DNA of 64,000 nt from Nannocystaceae bacterium (GTDB lineage: Bacteria > Myxococcota_A > Polyangia > Nannocystales > Nannocystaceae). Below the pieces are notes generated by a model, which made no database searches, was not told the DNA's origin, and saw only the letters and a list, made by a program, of their open reading frames with translations. Numbering within the stretch: position 1 is the first letter of the stretch; each line of letters starts with the position of its first letter. The position numbers and the translations under genes were made by a program. Positions 3,080 to 52,586 of this stretch are shown here, in pieces. The stretch covers positions 9,716 to 73,715 of the forward strand of contig JAWKQZ010000037.1 of assembly GCA_041389845.1 (NCBI GenBank). The letters run 5' to 3'.

Positions 3080-4054
3080 CTAGGCGCTCGTCGGCGGGGC
3101 GGACTTCTTGCTTGTCGGCTTCTTGGTCGATGACTTCGCCGGCTTCTTGCTCGCCGGCTTCTTGCTCGCCGACTTCGACGTCTTCTTGCTCGCAGACTTC
3201 GATGTCTTGCTGCTCGCAGACTTCGACGCCTTCTTGCTCGACGACTTCTTGCTCGCCGCCTTCGACGACTTCTTGCTCGACGCCTTCTTGCTCGCCGACT
3301 TCGATGCCTTCTTGCTCGCTGCCTTCTTGCTCGCCGACTTCGACGCCTTCTTGCTCGCCGCCTTCTTGCTCGCCGACTTCGACGCCTTCTTGCTCGACGC
3401 CTTCTTGCTCGCCGACTTCTTGCTCGCCGACTTCGACGCCTTCTTGCTCGCCGACTTCGACGCCTTCTTGCTCGCTGCCTTCTTGCTCGCCGACTTCGAC
3501 GCCTTCTTGCTCGATGCCTTCTTGCTCGACGCCTTCTTGCTCGCCGACTTCGACGCCTTCTTGCTCGACGACTTCGACGCCTTCTTGCTCGACGCCTCGC
3601 TCTTCACCCCCGCGGTCTTCGTCACCTTTTTCACCCCCGCGGGCCGCGTCGCCTTCTTCTCCGACTGCTTCGCCGCCCGGATCGCCGCGAGCGCCGCCTT
3701 GTAGGCGCTGGAGAGGGCGTCCGCGAGGTCGTCGTCGCAGTTATCGAAGTAGAATTGGATCATCTCGGAGGCGACCTCTAGGGTGCCGCTGCGGTAGACC
3801 GTGCCGCTGTCGACCATGTAGAGGAAGGCGTCGTAGACCTGGGCGCCGCCCTCGTCGAGCACGTCCCAGATCTCGAGGAAGCCGCGCTGGATCGTCTCAC
3901 CGCTGTCTTCGTCCTCGTCCTGGCCGAAGATCTCCTCGATGGTGGTCTCGTGGCCGCCGTAGAGCTTGTTGGCGTGGACGATCTGCTGGCGCTGGAGCGG
4001 CGTCAGCGAGTCGAGCGTGGGTCGCTCGCGCAGGTTGACGAACGTGAGGGACAT
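3080..4054 (-). CDS. protein with an acidic globular N-domain and a ~190-aa histone H1-like (S/A)KKAS repeat tail
   Basis: From the ATG at 4054: [17 protein letters not shown]...[13 protein letters not shown], followed by [17 protein letters not shown] repeated to the stop at 3080. The upstream part of the 631-aa track ORF is Arg/Gly junk. Confidence 0.75.
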
Positions 4055-4159
4055 CGCGGACCTCCTGGCCCGAGTGTAACAACCCTGCGCCCGCGGGGCG
4101 GGGCGGACTCCGCCGGCGGGCTCCCGCCGCGGCCCGTTTTGGGGTATATCCCCGCGGCG

Positions 4160-5275
4160 ATGACCGCCCGCACCCCGCTCCTGATCCTCTCCGCGCTCTG
4201 GATCTTCGCCGCGTGCACCGGCGAGCCCCCGCAGGTCGGCTACGGCCCGAGCAAGGAGGAGCTCGAGGCGAAGACGCGCGCGAAGCCGATCGAGATCGCC
4301 ATCCCGCCGAAGGGCCCGACCGACGCGCAGGCGAACCAGGCGACGAACCAGGCCCCGCCGACGCGCCCGCCCCCGCAGGCCCCGAAGGTGCTGCCGAAGG
4401 AGCCGAGCCCCGACATCGTCTACCCCGAGCCCTTCAACGGCGCGATCGCGGCCTCGCAGGCGCTCCCCAGCGGGATCAAGGTCGACGACTTCGTCGTCGG
4501 CAGCGGCGCGGAGGCGGTCAAGGGCGCCGAGGTCGAGGTCCACTACACCGGCTACCTCACCGACGGCTCGACCTTCGACTCGTCGATCCCGCGCGGCCGC
4601 CCCTTCCGCTTCGACCTCGGCGCCGGCCGGGTGATCAAGGGCTGGGACGAGGGGATCGCCGGGATGAAGGTCGGCGGCAAGCGACGCCTGATCATCCCCG
4701 CCGAGCTCGGCTACGGCCCCCGCGCGGCCGGCAAGATCCCGCCGAATTCGACGCTGATCTTCACCGTCGAGCTCCTCGGCGTCACCCCGCCCCCGCCGCC
4801 GCCGCAGCCGCTCACCGCCTTCGAGGGGACGCCCGTCAAGACCGCCAAGATCGAGGGGATCGAGCTCGTCGACTACAAGATCGGCACCGGCGCGGCCGCC
4901 AAGGCCGGCGACGAGGTCGAGGTCCACTACGCCGGCACCCTCACCGCCGACGGCACCGAGTTCGACTCCTCGCACCCGCGGATGCGGCCGATCAAGTTCG
5001 TGCTCGGTCGCGGCCAGGTGATCAAGGGCTGGGACCTCGGGATCGAGGGGATGAAGGTCGGCGGCCTCCGCAAGCTGGTGATCCCGGCGGCCCTGGCCTA
5101 CGGCGAGCGGGCGCGCGGGAAGATCCCCGCCAACGCCGACCTGACCTTCCGGGTCGAGCTGATGAGCGCCAAGCCCCTCCCGGCCCCGCCGGCGCCGCCC
5201 ACCCCGATCAAGGCGCCGCCGCCCCGACCAAGGCGCCGCCGCCCCGACCGGAAGGCGCCCGCCGAGGGCCAGTGA
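4160..5275 (+). CDS. lipoprotein with two FKBP-type peptidyl-prolyl cis-trans isomerase domains
   Basis: Lipobox in MTARTPLLILSALWIFAAC. Two copies of the FKBP_C signature (VHYTGYLTDGSTFDSS...VIKGWDEGIAGMKVGG; VHYAGTLTADGTEFDSS...VIKGWDLGIEGMKVGG). Confidence 0.9.
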   Translation: MTARTPLLILSALWIFAACTGEPPQVGYGPSKEELEAKTRAKPIEIAIPPKGPTDAQANQATNQAPPTRPPPQAPKVLPKEPSPDIVYPEPFNGAIAASQALPSGIKVDDFVVGSGAEAVKGAEVEVHYTGYLTDGSTFDSSIPRGRPFRFDLGAGRVIKGWDEGIAGMKVGGKRRLIIPAELGYGPRAAGKIPPNSTLIFTVELLGVTPPPPPPQPLTAFEGTPVKTAKIEGIELVDYKIGTGAAAKAGDEVEVHYAGTLTADGTEFDSSHPRMRPIKFVLGRGQVIKGWDLGIEGMKVGGLRKLVIPAALAYGERARGKIPANADLTFRVELMSAKPLPAPPAPPTPIKAPPPRPRRRRPDRKAPAEGQ

Positions 5276-5324
5276 GCGCCGGTCGCCAGCGGCCGAGCGC
5301 TGGTCCGCGCGCCGCCCTCTCGGA

Positions 5325-5590
5325 GCGCGCGGGCGCGGACGCGAGGTCGGCTCCCGCGAGCTGCGTCCTCGCGGCCCTTCCGTCTGCCGCTTCTTCGGCG
5401 CGCGCGGACGCGGCCGTGAGGTCGGCTCCCGCGACCTGCATCTTCGAGGCCCTTCCGTCTGCCGCTTCTTCGGCGCGCGCGGAGGTGGCCGCGAGGTCGG
5501 CTCCCGCGACCCGCATCTTCGCGGCCCTTCCGTCTGCCGCTTCGTCGGCGCACGGGGACGCGGCCGCGAGGTCTCCCTCGCAATCGCCCG
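5325..5590. repeat. 75-bp tandem repeat, about 3.5 copies
   Basis: GGTCGGCTCCCGCGA recurs at 5345, 5420 and 5495. It lies between the FKBP stop and the FGE-family start. Confidence 0.9.
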
Positions 5591-6732
5591 TGAACCGCGT
5601 CCTCGCGCCCGCTCCGCGCGTCGCTTCGTCGGACTCGGGCGTCGCCCGGCGCGTCGGCGCGCTCGCGGCCGCGCTCGCCCTCCTGAGCGCCTGTGACGGC
5701 GGCCGCAGCACCGACACGCCGAGCGCCTCGGCGCCCCCGCGGGCGGAGGTCGATCCGGCCGCGAGCTCCGGTCCCAAGGGACAGGTCCCTGAGGACAGGT
5801 CCCAAGAGCCAGCCTCCGAGGTCACCCCCGAGGTGGCCGAGGCCGCGACGCCGGACCCCGAGGCCCCGGAGGCGAAGGCCGAGGACGCCGCGCCCGCGCT
5901 CGCGGCCGCGCCCGACGGCACCCCGGCGATCCCTTGCGAGTCGCCGCCCGAGGACATGGCCTGCATCCCCGCCGGCCCCTTCCTCCGCGGCAGCGACGAC
6001 GGCCCCGAGAACGCCCGCCCGGCCGCGACGGTGTGGCTTCAGACCTACTACATGGATCGCAACGAGGTCACCTACGCCGAGTACAAGGCGTGCGTCCGCG
6101 CCCGCAAGTGCCCGATGTCGGGGCCGGCCTACAGCGACTTCGATCGCCCGCGGCAGCCGATCAACGGGATCTCGTGGCACGACGCGGTCGCCTACTGCCG
6201 CGCCCACGGCAAGCGCCTGCCGACCGAGGCCCAGTGGGAGAAGGCCGCCCGCGGCGACTCCGGCGAGCTCCACCCCTGGGGCGACGAGCCGGCGACCTGC
6301 GAGCGGGCGATCCTCCGCGACGCGAGCGGCCGCGGCTGCGGCGTGAAGAAGCAGGGGTCGAAGCCCGAGACCGGTCGACCCTGGGAGATCGGCTCGCGCC
6401 CCGCCTACCGCTACGGCCTCTACGACATGGCCGGCAACTCCTGGGAGTGGGTCGCCGACTGGTACACCCGCTCCTACGCCGAGTGCGGCGACGCCTGCCT
6501 CGGCGTCGATCCGAAGGGCCCCTGCGGCGGCGCCGACGAGTGCCCGGGGCAGAAGCGGAAGATCGTCCGCGGCGGCTCCTGGTACTGGCCGGCCGAGTAC
6601 GCGACGGCGATCTACCGCCGGCCCCACTTCCCCGAGAACCGGCCCTTCCATCACTTCGGCTTCCGCTGCGCGGCGACGGTCGACGACGCGGCGGCGCTCC
6701 GCGGCGCGGCCGGCTCGACGGCGACGCCCTGA
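5590..6732 (+). CDS. formylglycine-generating-enzyme (FGE/SUMF1) family lipoprotein
   Basis: C-terminal domain with CIPAGPFLRGS...NEVTYAEY...ISWHDAVAYC...LPTEAQWEKAARG...GNSWEWVADWY...VRGGSW...GFRCA. The putative lipobox ALALLSAC is preceded by a GTG at 5590 (start uncertain). The first 460 codons of the 839-aa track ORF are shadow frame. Confidence 0.8.
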   Translation: MNRVLAPAPRVASSDSGVARRVGALAAALALLSACDGGRSTDTPSASAPPRAEVDPAASSGPKGQVPEDRSQEPASEVTPEVAEAATPDPEAPEAKAEDAAPALAAAPDGTPAIPCESPPEDMACIPAGPFLRGSDDGPENARPAATVWLQTYYMDRNEVTYAEYKACVRARKCPMSGPAYSDFDRPRQPINGISWHDAVAYCRAHGKRLPTEAQWEKAARGDSGELHPWGDEPATCERAILRDASGRGCGVKKQGSKPETGRPWEIGSRPAYRYGLYDMAGNSWEWVADWYTRSYAECGDACLGVDPKGPCGGADECPGQKRKIVRGGSWYWPAEYATAIYRRPHFPENRPFHHFGFRCAATVDDAAALRGAAGSTATP

Positions 6733-6800: not shown

Positions 6801-7061
6801 CGGTCACGTTCGCGGTCGGCGGAGGGCCTTCGCGCCGCCTGCCGCGGCGCTCCGGGTGTGTGATCGCTGCCCGGGAGAGGGACCCGCGCTCCGCCGTCAC
6901 TGCGGCCCGGCGGGCCCTCCCGCGGCGCGATCGCCCTCCGTCGAGGCGCCGCGAGCTCTACCTTGCGCGCCGCCGCAGGCCCGGCGCCGCTCGACCTCTG
7001 CGCCGGCGGGCGCCCGGACGATCCCCGAGGACCGCGCGGAGGGCGTGCTACGATCGCGGCG

Positions 7062-7559
7062 ATGTCGACGACTTCGCCGCGCGCGTGGGCCTCGATCACG
7101 ATCGTCCTCCTCCTCCTCGCCTGCGGCGGCGCGTCGTCGACGCCCGCGACCGCGCCGCGGGCCGAGGGCGACAAGGCAGCGCCCGACGCCGCGACGCCGT
7201 CCTCCGCGCCCGTCGTCGACGATCGCCAGGCGGTCGTCCAGCTCATCCTCGATCACCCGGGGCTCGACGGCTACTGGCACCAGGACACCCTCCCCGACCG
7301 GGCGCCGCTGGTGGTCCTCGCCAACCAACACACCCGCGGCCTCACCCTCACCAAGTTCGACGAGCCGGTGCAGATCCGCAGCGCCAAGGAGCTCGCCGGG
7401 CGGCCCTACTTCGTCGTCCACGCCCTCAAGCTCCGCGCCGACGGGGCCGAGGTCCGCTTCGAGTACGCGGTCGAGGGCGTCCGTGCCAGCGCGACCCTTG
7501 ATCGCGGCGGCGAAGGGGGCGGGTGGCAGGTGACGCAATTGGACCTCGGCGAGCGCTGA
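7062..7559 (+). CDS. small lipoprotein, unknown function
   Basis: MSTTSPRAWASITIVLLLLACGG lipobox at an internal ATG of the 198-aa ORF. Good GC3. Confidence 0.65.
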   Translation: MSTTSPRAWASITIVLLLLACGGASSTPATAPRAEGDKAAPDAATPSSAPVVDDRQAVVQLILDHPGLDGYWHQDTLPDRAPLVVLANQHTRGLTLTKFDEPVQIRSAKELAGRPYFVVHALKLRADGAEVRFEYAVEGVRASATLDRGGEGGGWQVTQLDLGER

Positions 7560-7690
7560 TCGCCGTCGCGCGGGCGCGTGGGACCGCGTCGTCGGGCCGT
7601 GCACGCCTTCAGGCCGCGCCTGCCAGACCTCGCCCGCCCTCAGGCCGCGCCCGTCGTCAAACCGCGCCCGCCCTCCGACCTCGCCCGCCC

Positions 7691-8707
7691 TCAGGCCGCG
7701 CCGCGGGCCCGGACGCGCCGCCCCCGGGCCGCGATCAGGAGCGGAACCAAGAGCGCCAGCGCGTCGCCGCCGCGGGGGCTGGTCCGGCACTTCGAACACC
7801 CGCCCTCGTAGTCGATGCACGTGCACTCGTCGCACCCGGGGGCGCGGACGTCGATGCCGCTGGCCTCGCTCGCCCAGCAGAGGGCGGCGGGCGCGTTGAA
7901 GTAGAAGCCGCCGTCGCCGCAGCCCTGGCCGCGCGAGACGACGCCGACGAGGACGCGCTCGCCGTCCCGACCCCGTGCGAACGCGGGGCCGCCGGAGTCG
8001 CCCTGGCAGGAGTCGTGGCCGTCGCCGCCGGCGAAGAACTCGGTGAAGCTCGGGCTGTACTCGCGGAGCTTCACCTCGACCTCGCGCTTGGGGCCGCCCA
8101 CCTTGTCCGCGTCCTCGCCGTAGCCGACCACGGTGAGCACGTCGCCGGGCCGCATCGCCGCGTCCCACTCGTCCTGATCGGCGAGGACCCGGACCGGCGC
8201 GATCGGGGGCGCCTCGCGGAGGACGATCACCGCGACGTCGTACCAGTCCCAGACCGTCCCGCAATCCGGGCAGTACTCGGGGTGGAGCGCGTACGACTCG
8301 GCGCTCGTCTGCCAGGTCAACTGGTGGAGGTCGTCGCCGATCCCGACGCGGATCTTCTCCGGGAGCGTGCCGCCGTCGAGGCAGTGGGCGGCGGTCAACA
8401 CCAGCGTCGGCGCGATCAAGGTGCCGGTGCAGTCCTCGAGCGGGGTCAAGATCGCCACGGTGTCCAGGTAGGCGCCGGGGGTCACGGCGGCGCCGCCGAG
8501 GATCGGCTGCGGCGGCGGGGACGAGGGGCCGGCGATCGGCGCGTCGATCGGCGCGCCGCCTCCGACGAGCCCCAGGATCGCGGCGAGCACCAGCACCCGG
8601 CGAGCGTAGCCCCGATCGAGGCGAACGACGAGGCGCGTGTCTGCGCCGGCGCCCGGGATCGCGGCGCTGGGTCGGACCGAAGGGTCATTCGCCGCTGAGC
8701 GGGCCAC
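7691..8707 (-). CDS. secreted trypsin-like (S1) serine protease with a MYXO-CTERM-like tail
   Basis: Catalytic triad contexts LTAAHC, DVAVIVL and CQGDSGGP. The signal-like segment is RRVLVLAAILGLVGG. The C-terminus is GGCSKCRTSPRGGDALALLVPLLIAARGRRVRARG. The start is uncertain: GTG at 8707 or GTG at 8596. Confidence 0.85.
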   Translation of the reverse strand: MARSAANDPSVRPSAAIPGAGADTRLVVRLDRGYARRVLVLAAILGLVGGGAPIDAPIAGPSSPPPQPILGGAAVTPGAYLDTVAILTPLEDCTGTLIAPTLVLTAAHCLDGGTLPEKIRVGIGDDLHQLTWQTSAESYALHPEYCPDCGTVWDWYDVAVIVLREAPPIAPVRVLADQDEWDAAMRPGDVLTVVGYGEDADKVGGPKREVEVKLREYSPSFTEFFAGGDGHDSCQGDSGGPAFARGRDGERVLVGVVSRGQGCGDGGFYFNAPAALCWASEASGIDVRAPGCDECTCIDYEGGCSKCRTSPRGGDALALLVPLLIAARGRRVRARGAA

Positions 8708-48207: not shown

Positions 48208-49461
48208 TCAGCGGCGGCCGTGGAGGAAGTAGGTCTCCATCGGCCCGAGCCCCTTGACGTCGATCACCCCGCGCTTGGTGAAGTCGAAGCGGCCCTCGAG
48301 GCGCTCGTAGGTCGACGCCTCGACCTGGATGTGGCCGGGGAGGCCGTGGGACTCCATCCGGCTCGCGGTGTTGACGGTGTCGCCCCAGAGGTCGTAGGCG
48401 AACTTGCGGGTGCCGATGATCCCGGCGACCACCGGGCCGCTGTGGAGGCCGATCCGCACCGCGAGCGAGAGGTCGTGATCGACGCTGAGCTGGTCGACGG
48501 CGCCGAGCATCGCCATCGCCATCTCGGCCATCACCTCGGCGTGATCGCGGCGGGGCGTCGGCACCCCGGCGACGACCATGTAGGCGTCGCCGATCGTCTT
48601 GATCTTCTCGAGGCCGTAGGCGTCGCTGAGCGCGTCGAAGGCGGTGAAGACCACCCGCAGGACCTCGACGACCGCCTCCGGCTCGGTGACCGCGGCCCGC
48701 TCGGAGAAGCCGACGATGTCGGCGAAGAGGACGGTGACGTCGTCGAAGTGCTCGGCGATCCGGGCCTCGCCGGCCTGGAGGCGGCGGGCGATCGGCGCCG
48801 GGAGGATGTTGAGGAGGAGCGCCTCGGCCCGCTCCATCGCCGCCGAGAGGTCGGCGGTGCGCTCGGCGATCTTGATCTCGAGCTCGGCGTTGGCCCGCCG
48901 GAGGTCCTCCTCGAGGAGCGCGCGGCCGACCCGCGACGCGGTCATCGACGCGATCGTCGTCAGGATCTCGCGGTGGGTCTGGCTGAAGAAGTCGACCTCG
49001 GAGTGCTCGGAGTCGAGGACGCCGATCACCCGGTCGTTGTAGAAGATCGGGATCGCCACCTCGGAGAGGCGCACCTTGTCGTCGGCGATGTAGCGGGGGT
49101 CCGCCCGGGTGTCGGCGATGTAGATGGCCTCGCCGGTGGCCGCGACCGCGCCGACGATCCCGCGGCCGACCGGGATCTCGATCGGCGCCAGGATCTCGCG
49201 GCCCTCCGGGTTCTTGGGGCCGTAGGCGGCGCGCTGGACCAGCACCTCGCGGCGATCGTCGACGAGGTAGATGACGCAGTCCTCGAGGCCGAGGCGGGCG
49301 ACCGCGCTGTTGGCGACGTCCCAGAGGATGTCGTCGACGTCGGTCTGGGTGTGAAGGAGCGACGACGAGAAGAAGTTGACGACGTCGAGGTAGCGGGCCT
49401 TGGCCTCGAGCTCGGCGCAGCGCGCCCGGAGGGCGGCGATCTCGTCAGGCGAGTCGGCCAT
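48208..49461 (-). CDS. GAF-domain class III adenylate/guanylate cyclase
   Basis: GAF part (VGRGIVGAVAATGEAIYIADTRADPRY...). Cyclase part (VTVLFADIVGFSE...KTIGDAYMVVAG...RIGLHSGPVVAGIIG...YDLWGDTVNTASRMES). Confidence 0.92.
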   Translation of the reverse strand: MADSPDEIAALRARCAELEAKARYLDVVNFFSSSLLHTQTDVDDILWDVANSAVARLGLEDCVIYLVDDRREVLVQRAAYGPKNPEGREILAPIEIPVGRGIVGAVAATGEAIYIADTRADPRYIADDKVRLSEVAIPIFYNDRVIGVLDSEHSEVDFFSQTHREILTTIASMTASRVGRALLEEDLRRANAELEIKIAERTADLSAAMERAEALLLNILPAPIARRLQAGEARIAEHFDDVTVLFADIVGFSERAAVTEPEAVVEVLRVVFTAFDALSDAYGLEKIKTIGDAYMVVAGVPTPRRDHAEVMAEMAMAMLGAVDQLSVDHDLSLAVRIGLHSGPVVAGIIGTRKFAYDLWGDTVNTASRMESHGLPGHIQVEASTYERLEGRFDFTKRGVIDVKGLGPMETYFLHGRR

Positions 49462-49849
49462 CGCGCGAGCAGACTAGCCGATCGCGGCGCCCCTCGGCGT
49501 CACGCGCGGCGACGCGCGGTCATGCGCCGCCGCCGCCCCGCGCGACGAGCTCGACGATCACACCGACCCGCGATCGCCGGAGGCGCGACGCGGATCCGTC
49601 TGCGGAGGCCGGCGGAGCGGGCCCCGTCGAGGTCGTCGTCGCCCGCGGAGGGCCCGCGGGTGAGGCCGTCGTCGACCTCGCCCGGATCGCAGGCGCTGGA
49701 GCGGCCGCGGCACCCGTAGCGGGTCGCAGCACGAGAGGTCGGTCGGACTGGAGCAGGGCGGCGGCGGCGGCGGGCGGCCGCGCGCTCAAGGGCGCCGCGC
49801 GACCCGCCAACCTCCGCTCCGGGCCCCGCGCGACCCGCCGACGCCGCGC

Positions 49850-50866
49850 TCAGTCCTCGCCCCAGGCGACGCCCGCGAGCCAGGAGAGGAGGTCCTTGCC
49901 GACCACCCGCCGATCGCCGTCGTCGTGCCAGAACGAGAGCACCTGGCCGACGACGCCGCGCTTCGCCGGCGCGAGATCGAGGACGTGGTGGTTGCCGGCG
50001 CCGTCGTAGGTGAGCGGGATCCACTCGCGGATCCACCACCTCGGCTGGACGCCGCGGCCGACCTCGTGGCTCTCGTTGGCCCCGAAGACGCCGTCGTCCA
50101 GGAGCTCCTTCCAGACCCGCCACTCGCTGATGATCCGCGCGAGCGAGAGGAGCTCGCGGCCCTCGACCGGGTACTCGCGCGCGGGGCCGCCGTCGTGGGC
50201 GAGGAACCACGCCCGCACCGGCGCGGGGAAGGCGACCCCGAGGATCCGCTCGGCCCTGGCGACCGCGGCCGCGCTGGCGCCCCGGGGGAGCTTCACGCCG
50301 GCGGCGCTCGAGCGGGCCTCGATCCGGGCGATCAGGCCGGCGGTCGAGGCGGGCTTCTTCGTCGACTTCTTCGCTGTCTTTTTCGCCGCGCTCGACTTCT
50401 TTGCGCTCGTCTTCTTCGCGCTTGTCTTCTTCGCGCTCGACTTCTTCGCGCTCGCCTTCTTCGCCGACTTCTTCGCGGCCGGTTTCTTCGCGCTCGACTT
50501 CTTCGCGCTCGACTTCTTCGCGCTCGCCTTCTTCGCGCTCGCCTTCTTCGCGCTCGCCTTCTTCGCGCTCGCCTTCTTCGCGCTCGCCTTCTTCGCGCTC
50601 GCCTTCTTCGTCGCCTTCTTGGTCGCCGGTTTCTTCGTCGACTTCTTCGCGCTCGCCTTCTTCGTCGCCTTCTTGGCCGCCGGTTTCTTCGCGCTCGACT
50701 TCTTCGCGCTCGACTTCTTCGCGCTCGTCTTCTTTGCGCTCGCCTTCTTCGCGCTCGTCTTCTTCGTCGTCTTCTTCGCGCTCGACTTCTTCGCGCTCGC
50801 CTTCTTCGTCGCCTTCTTCGCGCCCGACTTCTTCACGCCCGTCTTCTTCACGCCGTCCATGGTCAC
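49850..50866 (-). CDS. histone H1-like (A/S)KK(A/T) repeat N-tail fused to an SMI1/KNR4 (SUKH-1) domain
   Basis: [27 protein letters not shown]... runs for about 185 aa. Then [35 protein letters not shown]...[17 protein letters not shown]...VLSFWHDDG, typical of SUKH-1. Assignment from memory. Confidence 0.85.
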
Positions 50867-50912
50867 GCCTCCGCCCGCGAGTATCCCCCGCGCGCGGCCG
50901 GGCTTGAAGCGA

Positions 50913-52586
50913 TCAGAGCCCGAGGCCGAGCTCGGCGAGGAGCGGCTTCAGGACCCCGCCGAGGCCCTCGGCGACGATCGACGCGACCGCGACGGTCGTC
51001 AGGGTCACGCTCGACCACTTGAGCCAGCGGCCGAGGACGATCCACATCAGGAAGCCGCCGAGGAAGAACGAGATCCCGAGCGCCGGCGAGAGGACGAGGC
51101 CGAGGCCGACGCCGATCGAGTCGGGGACCCAGGGGTGGATCTTCTTGATCCGCTCGATCAGGGTGTAGACCACGCCGATCGCCCCGCCGAGGAGGAGCGC
51201 GTCCCAGGCCCCCGGCGGCAGCGGGGTGGTGCCGTCGAAGATCTTGGCGCTCGCGGCCCACATCTTGGCGACCGGCGCCGGGTGCCCCTCGCCCTCGAGG
51301 ACCAGCGGCCTAGCGAGGTTGATCTGCTCGAAGACCAGGGCCGCGACCAGCGAGCAGGGGATCACGGTCAGGAGCTGGGCCCAGAACTGGTAGCGCGAGG
51401 GGACCTTGAACCAGCGGCCGTAGGCCATGTCGCCGGTGAGGAGGCCGGCCTGCGCCCCGGAGCCGGCGACGAAGCCGGCCCCGGTGAGGTTGACGGCGAC
51501 CGTGCGGCCGCCGAAGGCCGTGGTCACGCCCTGGAGGAGGATCCCCATCACCCGCGCCGGGTTGAAGGCGGTCTGGGCCGCCGCCCGGGTGGCGATGATG
51601 TTCTGGAGGAGCCCGCCGATGGCGATGAGGACGATCACCAGGAGGAGCGAGAGGCCGAAGAGGGTGGTCAGGACCGCGGACGCGACCACGAAGGCGATCG
51701 TCGCCAGGATCGCCAGGCCCCGCCCGGAGAGGACCGGGTCGTCGTCGTCGGTCTTCTCGCCGATCGCGAGGATGCTGGCGAAGGCGCCGACGAAGGTGCG
51801 CCAGTTGATCACGATCGTCACCACCCCGGAGGCGACCAGGAAGCCGAGGCCGGGCCAGAAGTAGCGGTGCGGCGCCGCGGGCTCGGGGAGCATCGGCGCC
51901 ATCACCATCAGCGCGGCGGCGCCGGCCAGGAAGCCGACGCAGGTCCGCATGCCCATCAGGTAGGAGCCGCCGAGGGCGAAGGGCGACCAGGCGATCGCGC
52001 CGCCGAAGGCCGCGAGGGGGCCGAGGGCGGTCTCGCTGGGGAAGAGCCCGTAGCCGCCGTCGTCGTTGCCGACCACCCAGACGATCAGCGCGAGCGCGGC
52101 TCCGAGGAGGATCTTCGGCTGCCGCGGATCGCCCTCTTCCACCAAGGCGCGGATCACCCCGGCGACCGCCTTGGAGCCCGGCCACGGCAGGTCCTCGCGG
52201 AGGATCAGGAGCTGGCGGAGCGGGATCACCATCACCAGGCCGACCAGGCTCGAGACGATCGAGAACGCGGCCATCTCGAAGACGGTGTAGGCCGGCCCGG
52301 TCATCGCCTTGGCGGCGAAGAAGTTGGCGATGAAGCCGAGGCTGCCGCCGGCCGAGCCCATCGTCGACACGATCACCATCTCGGTGACGGTGATCGGCAG
52401 CTTCGACACGAAGAAGAAGGCGAAGAAGAAGAGCGCCGCGATCGTCGGCCCCTCCTCGATGACCCCGAAGGAGAGGGTCAGGTACGAATCCATGCCGCAG
52501 AGCAGGAGGGCCAGGAGGAAGCCGGAGATCACCGCCCGGGGGTGACGCCGCTCTGCGGGGGAGGAGGCGCGAGAGCACGAGCGCAC
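50913..52586 (-). CDS. OPT-family oligopeptide transporter
   Basis: 557-aa polytopic ORF. The N-terminus [26 protein letters not shown] and overall topology resemble bacterial OPT proteins. Confidence 0.85.

Follow-up and report, generated by a model that had tools for sequence, protein, structure and literature searches.

A lysine-rich, H1-like tail on a Knr4-type SUKH domain in Nannocystaceae: a candidate nucleic-acid-tethered adaptor

The stretch of DNA analyzed here (the window) comprises 64,000 nucleotides from a Nannocystaceae bacterium (GenBank assembly GCA_041389845.1, contig JAWKQZ010000037.1, positions 9,716 to 73,715). Its minus strand carries, at 49850..50866, an open reading frame (ORF) of 338 codons, counted from the first GTG, in which the first ~177 residues are (A/S/T)KK(A/S/T)-type repeats followed by a globular domain of the SUKH (SMI1/KNR4) superfamily. 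A preliminary description, made from the letters alone, had singled out this frame with its Lys-rich repeats and globular part, and all three are real as judged by ORF analysis, Pfam and Tandem Repeats Finder (TRF). While the tail-plus-globular architecture held, the proposed tail length of ~185 amino acids (aa) did not, since the tail extends for ~175 aa up to a conserved helix. The two neighbors named in that description, an OPT transporter and a GAF-cyclase, were also confirmed by Pfam. The features of the gene and its surroundings are collected in Table 1.

Table 1. Features of the SUKH gene and its immediate neighbors (positions in the window).
Feature	Position	Strand	Basis or remark
OPT transporter	50913..52586	-	46 bp upstream of the SUKH gene, same strand; Pfam
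GGAGG, Shine-Dalgarno-like	50868..50872	-	7 nt 5' of the ATG; direct reading of the sequence
Alternative start, GTG	50864..50866	-	
Likeliest start, ATG (codon 3 of the frame)	50858..50860	-	GGAGG context
Alternative start, GTG	50849..50851	-	Start of the public gene call P0002 (333 aa)
Polycationic tail, disorder predicted	50336..50860	-	175 aa; composition, GC content at third codon positions (GC3), AlphaFold2, Pfam HC2
Tandem repeat, 15 nt	50387..50853	.	32.3 copies, 82% match; TRF
Knr4-type SUKH-1 (SMI1_KNR4) domain, residues 178-338	49853..50335	-	Pfam match 49874..50281
Stop codon, TGA	49850..49852	-	
GAF-class III adenylate/guanylate cyclase	48208..49461	-	388 bp downstream of the SUKH gene; Pfam

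Several features bear on whether the repeats are translated. All candidate starts (GTG, ATG and GTG) lie 5' of the repeats. In frame, GC3 is 0.95 over the 175-aa tail (0.957 over codons 1-186) and the other two codon positions of the tail have a GC content of 0.32 and 0.58; GC3 is 0.98 for the SUKH part and 0.98-0.99 for the neighboring genes. In-frame ATG, GTG or TTG codons occur only at residues 1, 3, 6, 11, 191, 217, 309 and 321. The first helix of the domain in the AlphaFold2 model spans residues 175-188, 5' of every internal start codon, and residue E183 is nearly invariant among homologs. Because residues 12-190 offer no in-frame start, any product containing this helix must begin at residues 1-11 and include the tail. 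Additionally, seven orthologs keep a Lys-rich frame open over 189-467 codons despite differing repeat units and many indels. Thus, by four independent lines (the GGAGG and ATG pair, the GC3, the positions of the start codons and the open ortholog frames), the tail is translated and part of the coding sequence.

The preliminary description had itself raised the alternative that the Lys-rich region is untranslated and that the real protein is a bare SUKH domain made from an internal start. GTG codons are present at residues 191 and 217, and bare relatives of ~190 aa do exist. However, neither GTG is preceded by a Shine-Dalgarno-like sequence, both would remove the conserved and confidently predicted helix, and the alternative would leave the GGAGG and ATG pair 5' of the tail, the in-frame GC3 of the tail and the open frames of the seven orthologs to be explained. 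We regard it as hardly credible.

The composition of the tail is extreme. Its 175 aa consist of 40% K, 26% A, 19% S and 9% T, with no R and a single acidic residue, giving a net charge of +68 and an isoelectric point of 11.5. Each 15-nt unit encodes one A-S-A-K-K-type pentapeptide, and identical units run in succession within the array. In the long ORFs of the same genome Lys makes up 2.0% of residues and Arg 8.8%, and at a genomic GC content of 72% the Arg codons are the 'cheap' basic codons. Because Lys is enriched and Arg absent relative to the genome in spite of this GC content, selection acts on the Lys and the charge of the tail. The AlphaFold2 model, built from a 53-sequence alignment, has no secondary structure over residues 1-165, where the predicted local distance difference test score (pLDDT) is 45-56. 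The likeness to histone H1 drawn in the preliminary description is borne out as one of composition, not homology: the Pfam model HC2 (PF07382, histone H1-like nucleoprotein) scores 64 bits (cut-off 40; E=2.5e-17) over residues 31-183. The NCBIfam H1-like models stay below their cut-offs on the tail, NF038053 at 39.1 bits (cut-off 80) and NF038052 at 30.4 bits (cut-off 135).

Tracts of this kind are common in the window genome (G000), where ~20 ORFs carry K/A/S/T-rich, H1-like stretches. Recognizable domains occur in some of them, including a topoisomerase I with the tract at its N-terminus (L005, C13:85228-88524), a LysM/M74 peptidase and proteins with DUF1801 and TfoX_N domains; several other tract-bearing ORFs have no Pfam match. 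Because the tracts sit on unrelated proteins, the Lys-rich tail is a promiscuous module in this organism. The tract on topoisomerase I parallels the lysine repeats of actinobacterial TopA, which stabilize the TopA-DNA complex in Streptomyces (PMC5714199). The myxobacterial protein CarD was likewise functional when histone H1 or its disordered C-terminal region replaced the DNA-binding domain, as described in section 15 of PMC8156234, which cites Garcia-Heras et al. 2009. Further tract loci in the genome include L003, L004, L008 and L012, and two paralogs with a common '…TTAFD.W.DDPK…' motif have tails of 97 and 155 aa. A second tract-bearing ORF of the window lies at 3083-5821 on the minus strand (G000:C37:12798-15536, L010), where a 913-aa frame ends in a ~195-aa Lys/Ser-rich tail; this ORF gave no Pfam or NCBIfam match.

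Orthologs of the window gene show how such a tail changes. Our genome collection holds 30 confirmed loci, and the closest 22 (43-64% identity) are all labeled Myxococcota or 'Deltaproteobacteria'. These 22 include Nannocystis exedens DSM 71, N. pusilla, N. punicea, N. radixulma, N. bainbridge and Nannocystis sp. RBIL2, together with Labilithrix luteola and many Polyangiaceae and Polyangia metagenome-assembled genomes (MAGs). In the same-genus MAG HK-STAS-MYXO-15 (G004), the ortholog is 350 aa long with a 189-aa tail, and its SUKH domain is 73-74% identical to that of the window protein. The six Nannocystis orthologs are 562-627 aa long and have K/A/G-rich tails of 402-467 aa that begin MAKKTAGAKK. 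Across the eight genes the tails range from 175 to 467 aa in length, and their net charge stays between +60 and +94. The window and G004 tails are 53% identical, where shuffled tails reach 44-50%, and the repeat period is 15 nt in the window gene and 12, 42 or 57 nt in G004. Because the periods differ and tail identity is near the shuffled level while the charge is held, the tails have been rebuilt by independent repeat expansions that kept charge and composition but not sequence.

The globular part belongs to SMI1/KNR4 (SUKH-1), as the preliminary description had proposed, by hidden Markov model (HMM) search, search of the Protein Data Bank (PDB), AlphaFold2 and Foldseek alike. Pfam SMI1_KNR4 (PF09346) scores 58.3 bits (cut-off 25.4; E=1.6e-15) over residues 196-331, a match that covers profile positions 1-124 of 125. 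AlphaFold2 predicts an alpha/beta domain over residues 175-338, with pLDDT mostly 93-98. The best match in the PDB sequence search was the yeast Knr4/Smi1 core 8AJ2 (E=2.9e-12), and 5J1B matched likewise. With the predicted model as the Foldseek query, the top 15 hits were all Knr4 core structures (E 3e-13 to 4e-11, 26-27% identity, root-mean-square deviation 2.3-3.4 A), the best at E=3e-13 with a target-normalized template modeling (TM) score of 0.64. FBXO3, BF1740 and Syd followed, and the immunity protein YobK reached E=0.03 at 14% identity. Because Knr4 cores lead both the sequence and the fold matches and YobK is distant, these models place the domain in the Knr4-like part of SUKH-1 and not in its classical immunity-type part.

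A first homolog search with the SUKH region returned 53 proteins. The closest relatives (53-64% identity) show four designs: Lys/Ala-rich tails at the N-terminus, whose K-rich tracts measure 27-128 aa; WGR domains (PF05406) at either end or at both ends; a tail combined with a C-terminal WGR domain and an acidic linker between them; and a ~300-aa uncharacterised N-terminal domain combined with a C-terminal WGR domain. When 1.84 billion cluster representatives were searched exhaustively, 2379 matched at E<=1e-3. Architectures were counted with our own tract thresholds and a custom WGR HMM, with the WGR calls cross-checked by Pfam (Table 2). Tail or WGR is present in 31 of the 39 closest relatives and in 4-12% of the more distant tiers. 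The fusion had been called unusual in the preliminary description; within its own clade, carrying a tail or a WGR domain is the rule. The idea of a polyanion or nucleoid tether voiced there is strengthened, since in close relatives WGR, the domain central to DNA-break binding by PARP2 (PMC6294510), stands in for the Lys tail or accompanies it.

Table 2. Architectures of SUKH relatives by similarity tier.
Tier (bits)	n	K-rich tail >=25 aa	WGR	Either	Bare
>=140	39	16	18	31	2
120-140	33	1	4	4	23
100-120	47	1	2	3	27
85-100	72	2	3	5	39

A maximum-likelihood tree of 76 SUKH domains splits into two clades with 98/91 support. One is mostly bare (26 of 35 rows), and its source-named members are cyanobacterial. 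The other, with 41 rows, is decorated: 14 have a tail, 14 have WGR, 4 have both, 8 have other extensions and 1 is bare. Tail and WGR are interleaved within the decorated clade, where strongly supported branches force at least six changes of tail state and at least eight of WGR state. Sister proteins can be of opposite type, as with P0020, which has WGR, and P0058, which has a tail (support 100/82). On this tree, tail and WGR have thus been exchanged repeatedly.

Three further observations concern the architectures of the relatives. Directly after SUKH, most relatives with a WGR domain have 10-30 consecutive Asp/Glu residues, which form the C-terminus or lead into a C-terminal WGR domain as a linker (for example P0006, P0008, P0009, P0011, P0013, P0016 and P0020; loci L033, L036-L038 and L044), and the window protein has no such run. 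P0062 (also at the Labilithrix luteola locus L041) and P0063 have in common a ~260-aa uncharacterised domain (…PKPYVWIFRLGK…GFHAGASY…), which is N-terminal to SUKH in one of the two proteins and C-terminal in the other; both also contain a short K-rich tract. Lastly, three split matches, P0126, P0130 and P0159, were considered as fungal Knr4 and rejected: they have two or three tandem Knr4-like SUKH domains with K/E-rich linkers.

A SUKH domain in a bacterium is nearly always taken for a toxin antidote. Read in this way, the window protein would be an orphan or nucleoid-tethered immunity protein against a nuclease-type polymorphic toxin, such as a SitA-like or type VI secretion system (T6SS) effector from other myxobacteria, and the tail would concentrate the antidote on DNA. 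Among immunity proteins for nuclease toxins, SUKH-1 forms a major class (PMC3113570); the SUKH family also includes an immunity protein of Myxococcus xanthus, SitI1 (PMC5562445); and the window gene has a patchy distribution, which suits a conflict gene. However, the preliminary description had seen no adjacent toxin gene, and indeed no toxin-like domain lies within ~5 kb on either side; nor did we find a toxin neighbor at the G004 ortholog, at four distant relatives or at the six Nannocystis loci. The M. xanthus gene sitI1, by contrast, is located immediately downstream of the WHH-nuclease gene sitA1 (PMC5562445). The window gene also occurs in one copy per genome with no paralog arrays, is syntenic and near-universal in Nannocystis (5/6), unlike polymorphic immunity genes, and encodes a fold far nearer to the Knr4 core, at 26% identity, than to YobK. 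The earlier suggestion that the protein protects DNA from a nuclease toxin thus finds no support in the relatives examined, and we consider an immunity function improbable.

An anti-phage role was weighed as well. The SUKH domain matches PDC-M40A of the PADLOC candidate system PDC-M40 (E=1.3e-35, profile positions 21-162 of 169), and the neighboring GAF-cyclase matches the Pycsar model PycC (E=3.2e-20), so that the gene could belong to a defence system related to PDC-M40, possibly with the cyclase as its signaling component. However, PDC-M40B was not found in the window assembly (67.7% complete, with the window fully searched) or in five ortholog genomes, by a model that matched nothing in the control genomes either, so that this negative is of moderate strength and not fully validated. 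Moreover, the cyclase is not a neighbor in G004, Nannocystis or other relatives, no effector gene was found after it, and generic class-III cyclase homology (Pfam Guanylate_cyc, E=2.9e-63) would account for its match to PycC. PDC-M40 is itself only a candidate system, and our literature search found no paper naming it. With partner or effector genes missing, the PDC-M40 and Pycsar readings were both rejected, and we hold a defence function to be very unlikely.

Gene context supplied few other leads. The G004 ortholog is flanked by lipoprotein and PAS histidine kinase genes, and no two of the window, G004 and the four distant relatives have a neighbor in common. At all six Nannocystis loci (L026-L031, ~2300-2600), the tail-SUKH gene lies directly downstream of a long RelA/SpoT (p)ppGpp synthetase/hydrolase gene on the same strand, a linkage that was not found at the window or G004 locus. 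The WGR-bearing relative P0017 (L022, 5979-6962, minus strand) is divergent from, and 39 bp away from, a LigD primase-polymerase gene of non-homologous end joining (NHEJ; 7001-8662, plus strand), a single case that was not seen in the other relatives examined. The LigD neighbor and the relA/spoT linkage were set aside as functional clues, since neither recurs outside its own lineage. Around the window gene, a scan of 49400-51100 found no sigma-70-like promoter, a scan that is uninformative for this high-GC organism, and one terminator-like site, which is within chance expectation. Directly after the stop codon, window 49800-49849 contains two direct GGCGGGTCGCGCGG copies ~30 nt apart, and TRF reports a 9-nt repeat at 49825-49849.

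The reading that we prefer, and to which we would give roughly even chances, is that the window protein is a nucleic-acid-tethered adaptor. The disordered, strongly positive tail would serve as a non-specific electrostatic anchor to nucleic acid, most likely the nucleoid. The Knr4-type SUKH core, in the C-terminal 160 residues, would bind one or more protein partners, by analogy with yeast Knr4, a hub protein with a folded core and disordered arms (PMC8851865). On DNA, the protein could then recruit its partner, concentrate it or sequester it. Among related Polyangia a WGR domain may direct the SUKH core to nucleic acid in place of the Lys tail or alongside it. Because WGR replaces or joins the Lys tail on the same SUKH core, nucleic-acid targeting is probably a conserved theme of the clade. 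More broadly, and more tentatively, the Polyangia proteins may form a hitherto undescribed family of chromosome- or DNA-lesion-associated adaptors, built from a Knr4-type SUKH core and interchangeable modules (an H1-like tail, a PARP-type WGR domain or both). If so, they would be a bacterial analogue of eukaryotic chromatin-tethered hub proteins and the first indication of a role for the non-immunity, Knr4-like branch of bacterial SUKH proteins.

DNA is a putative ligand of the tail, and other roles for the tail must be weighed. It could bind RNA, ribosomes or polyphosphate, drive condensates, or act as an entropic or solubilizing spacer, with SUKH still a protein-binding domain and the protein not associated with the nucleoid. 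The tail does lack sequence-specific features, being a simple 15-nt repeat whose sequence is not kept between orthologs, and the similar tracts of the ~20 ORFs in this genome sit on unrelated proteins. However, the repeated exchange with WGR, a binder of DNA breaks in PARP2, points to nucleic acid, the same type of tract is present on the topoisomerase I of this genome, and a charge of +60 to +94 over very different tail lengths argues for electrostatic binding and not a mere spacer. We judge a role of this kind unlikely, though it deserves more weight than immunity.

Several points count against the nucleic-acid-tethered adaptor. RNA, polyphosphate and acidic membranes are further ligands of Lys-rich disordered tails, and one of the K-rich tracts in this genome is on the LysM/M74 murein-endopeptidase-type protein, which is presumably extracytoplasmic. 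We know of no demonstration that bacterial WGR domains bind DNA. Because the NCBIfam equivalogs are far below their cut-offs, the HC2 match is taken as a low-complexity, compositional one with no homology shown. The counts in Table 2 mix two sampling schemes, may include truncated metagenomic proteins and depend on our own tract thresholds, and the rows compared are interrelated. Finally, sampling of the class (301 genomes, 132 genera) turned up the gene in 11 genomes and 4 genera. Two genera hold most of the positives (5 of 6 genomes in Nannocystis and 4 of 9 in the other), and no positive genome has more than one match. The window assembly has two SUKH genes of different types on different contigs, the other one tail-less. 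An accessory or conflict-related function would fit this sparse distribution better than a general chromatin role would.

Proteins of this group are already in public databases under automatic labels, as 'SMI1/KNR4 family protein' or, for the WGR relatives at the Joint Genome Institute (JGI), 'cell wall assembly regulator SMI1 / predicted DNA-binding WGR domain protein'. A whole-word literature search found no paper mentioning SUKH together with WGR, and the founding SUKH paper mentions WGR zero times (PMC3113570). What we add is a subclade of Knr4-type SUKH proteins, known to date from Polyangia, that appears to be defined by interchangeable, putatively nucleic-acid-targeting modules; the window gene is among its purest polylysine-tail members. 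The clade shows a different and recurrent design, a Knr4-type core joined to such modules in loci that lack a nearby toxin. If DNA is indeed the target of tail and WGR, the clade would give the non-immunity SUKH branch of bacteria a concrete function that can be tested. It would also offer natural domain swaps (tail only, WGR only, both) with which to probe bacterial WGR ligands, and a further case of H1-like tails as portable DNA anchors in myxobacteria. Experiments are feasible because cultured Nannocystis strains carry the gene. For annotation, the clade warns against automatic 'immunity protein' or 'cell wall assembly regulator' labels on such genes.

The window protein can be compared with four known systems. 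With the SUKH immunity proteins (B. subtilis YobK and M. xanthus SitI1; Zhang, Iyer & Aravind 2011, PMC3113570) it shares superfamily, fold class and Pfam model, but its gene lacks an adjacent toxin, paralog arrays and conserved neighbors. Saccharomyces cerevisiae Knr4/Smi1 (5J1B, 8AJ2), the founding member of SUKH-1/PF09346, has HDG and GNH..DL among the motifs common to both proteins and likewise combines a folded core with a long intrinsically disordered region. However, yeast Knr4 has arms on either side of its core, neither of them polylysine, while the window protein has a single N-terminal arm with a charge of +68. The Knr4 partners (Slt2 and calcineurin) and its context in cell-wall signaling are yeast features without a known counterpart for the window protein, and the best PDB match is still only 26% identical, a level at which orthology is not established.

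Similar to the bacterial H1-like tails (Chlamydia Hc2, PF07382; Burkholderia NF038053; the H1-type regions that can substitute for the DNA-binding domain of myxobacterial CarD; the lysine repeats of actinobacterial TopA), the window tail has a K/A/S/T/P pentapeptide-like composition, predicted disorder and a very high positive charge, a likeness that is compositional, with homology not demonstrable. Such tails have precedents as generic DNA anchors on unrelated proteins (PMC8156234, PMC5714199), and the partners described for them do not include a Knr4-type SUKH domain. The fourth group comprises the Polyangia WGR-SUKH and Lys-tail-SUKH-WGR proteins, known from metagenomes and MAGs, which belong to the same SUKH subclade as the window protein at 53-64% identity. 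The WGR relatives P0009, P0011 and P0016 combine a Lys/Ala tail of 116-128 aa with a C-terminal WGR domain. In contrast, the window protein has neither WGR nor the acidic linker after SUKH, and its tail surpasses in length every other pure (A/S/T)KK repeat outside Nannocystis among the proteins examined.

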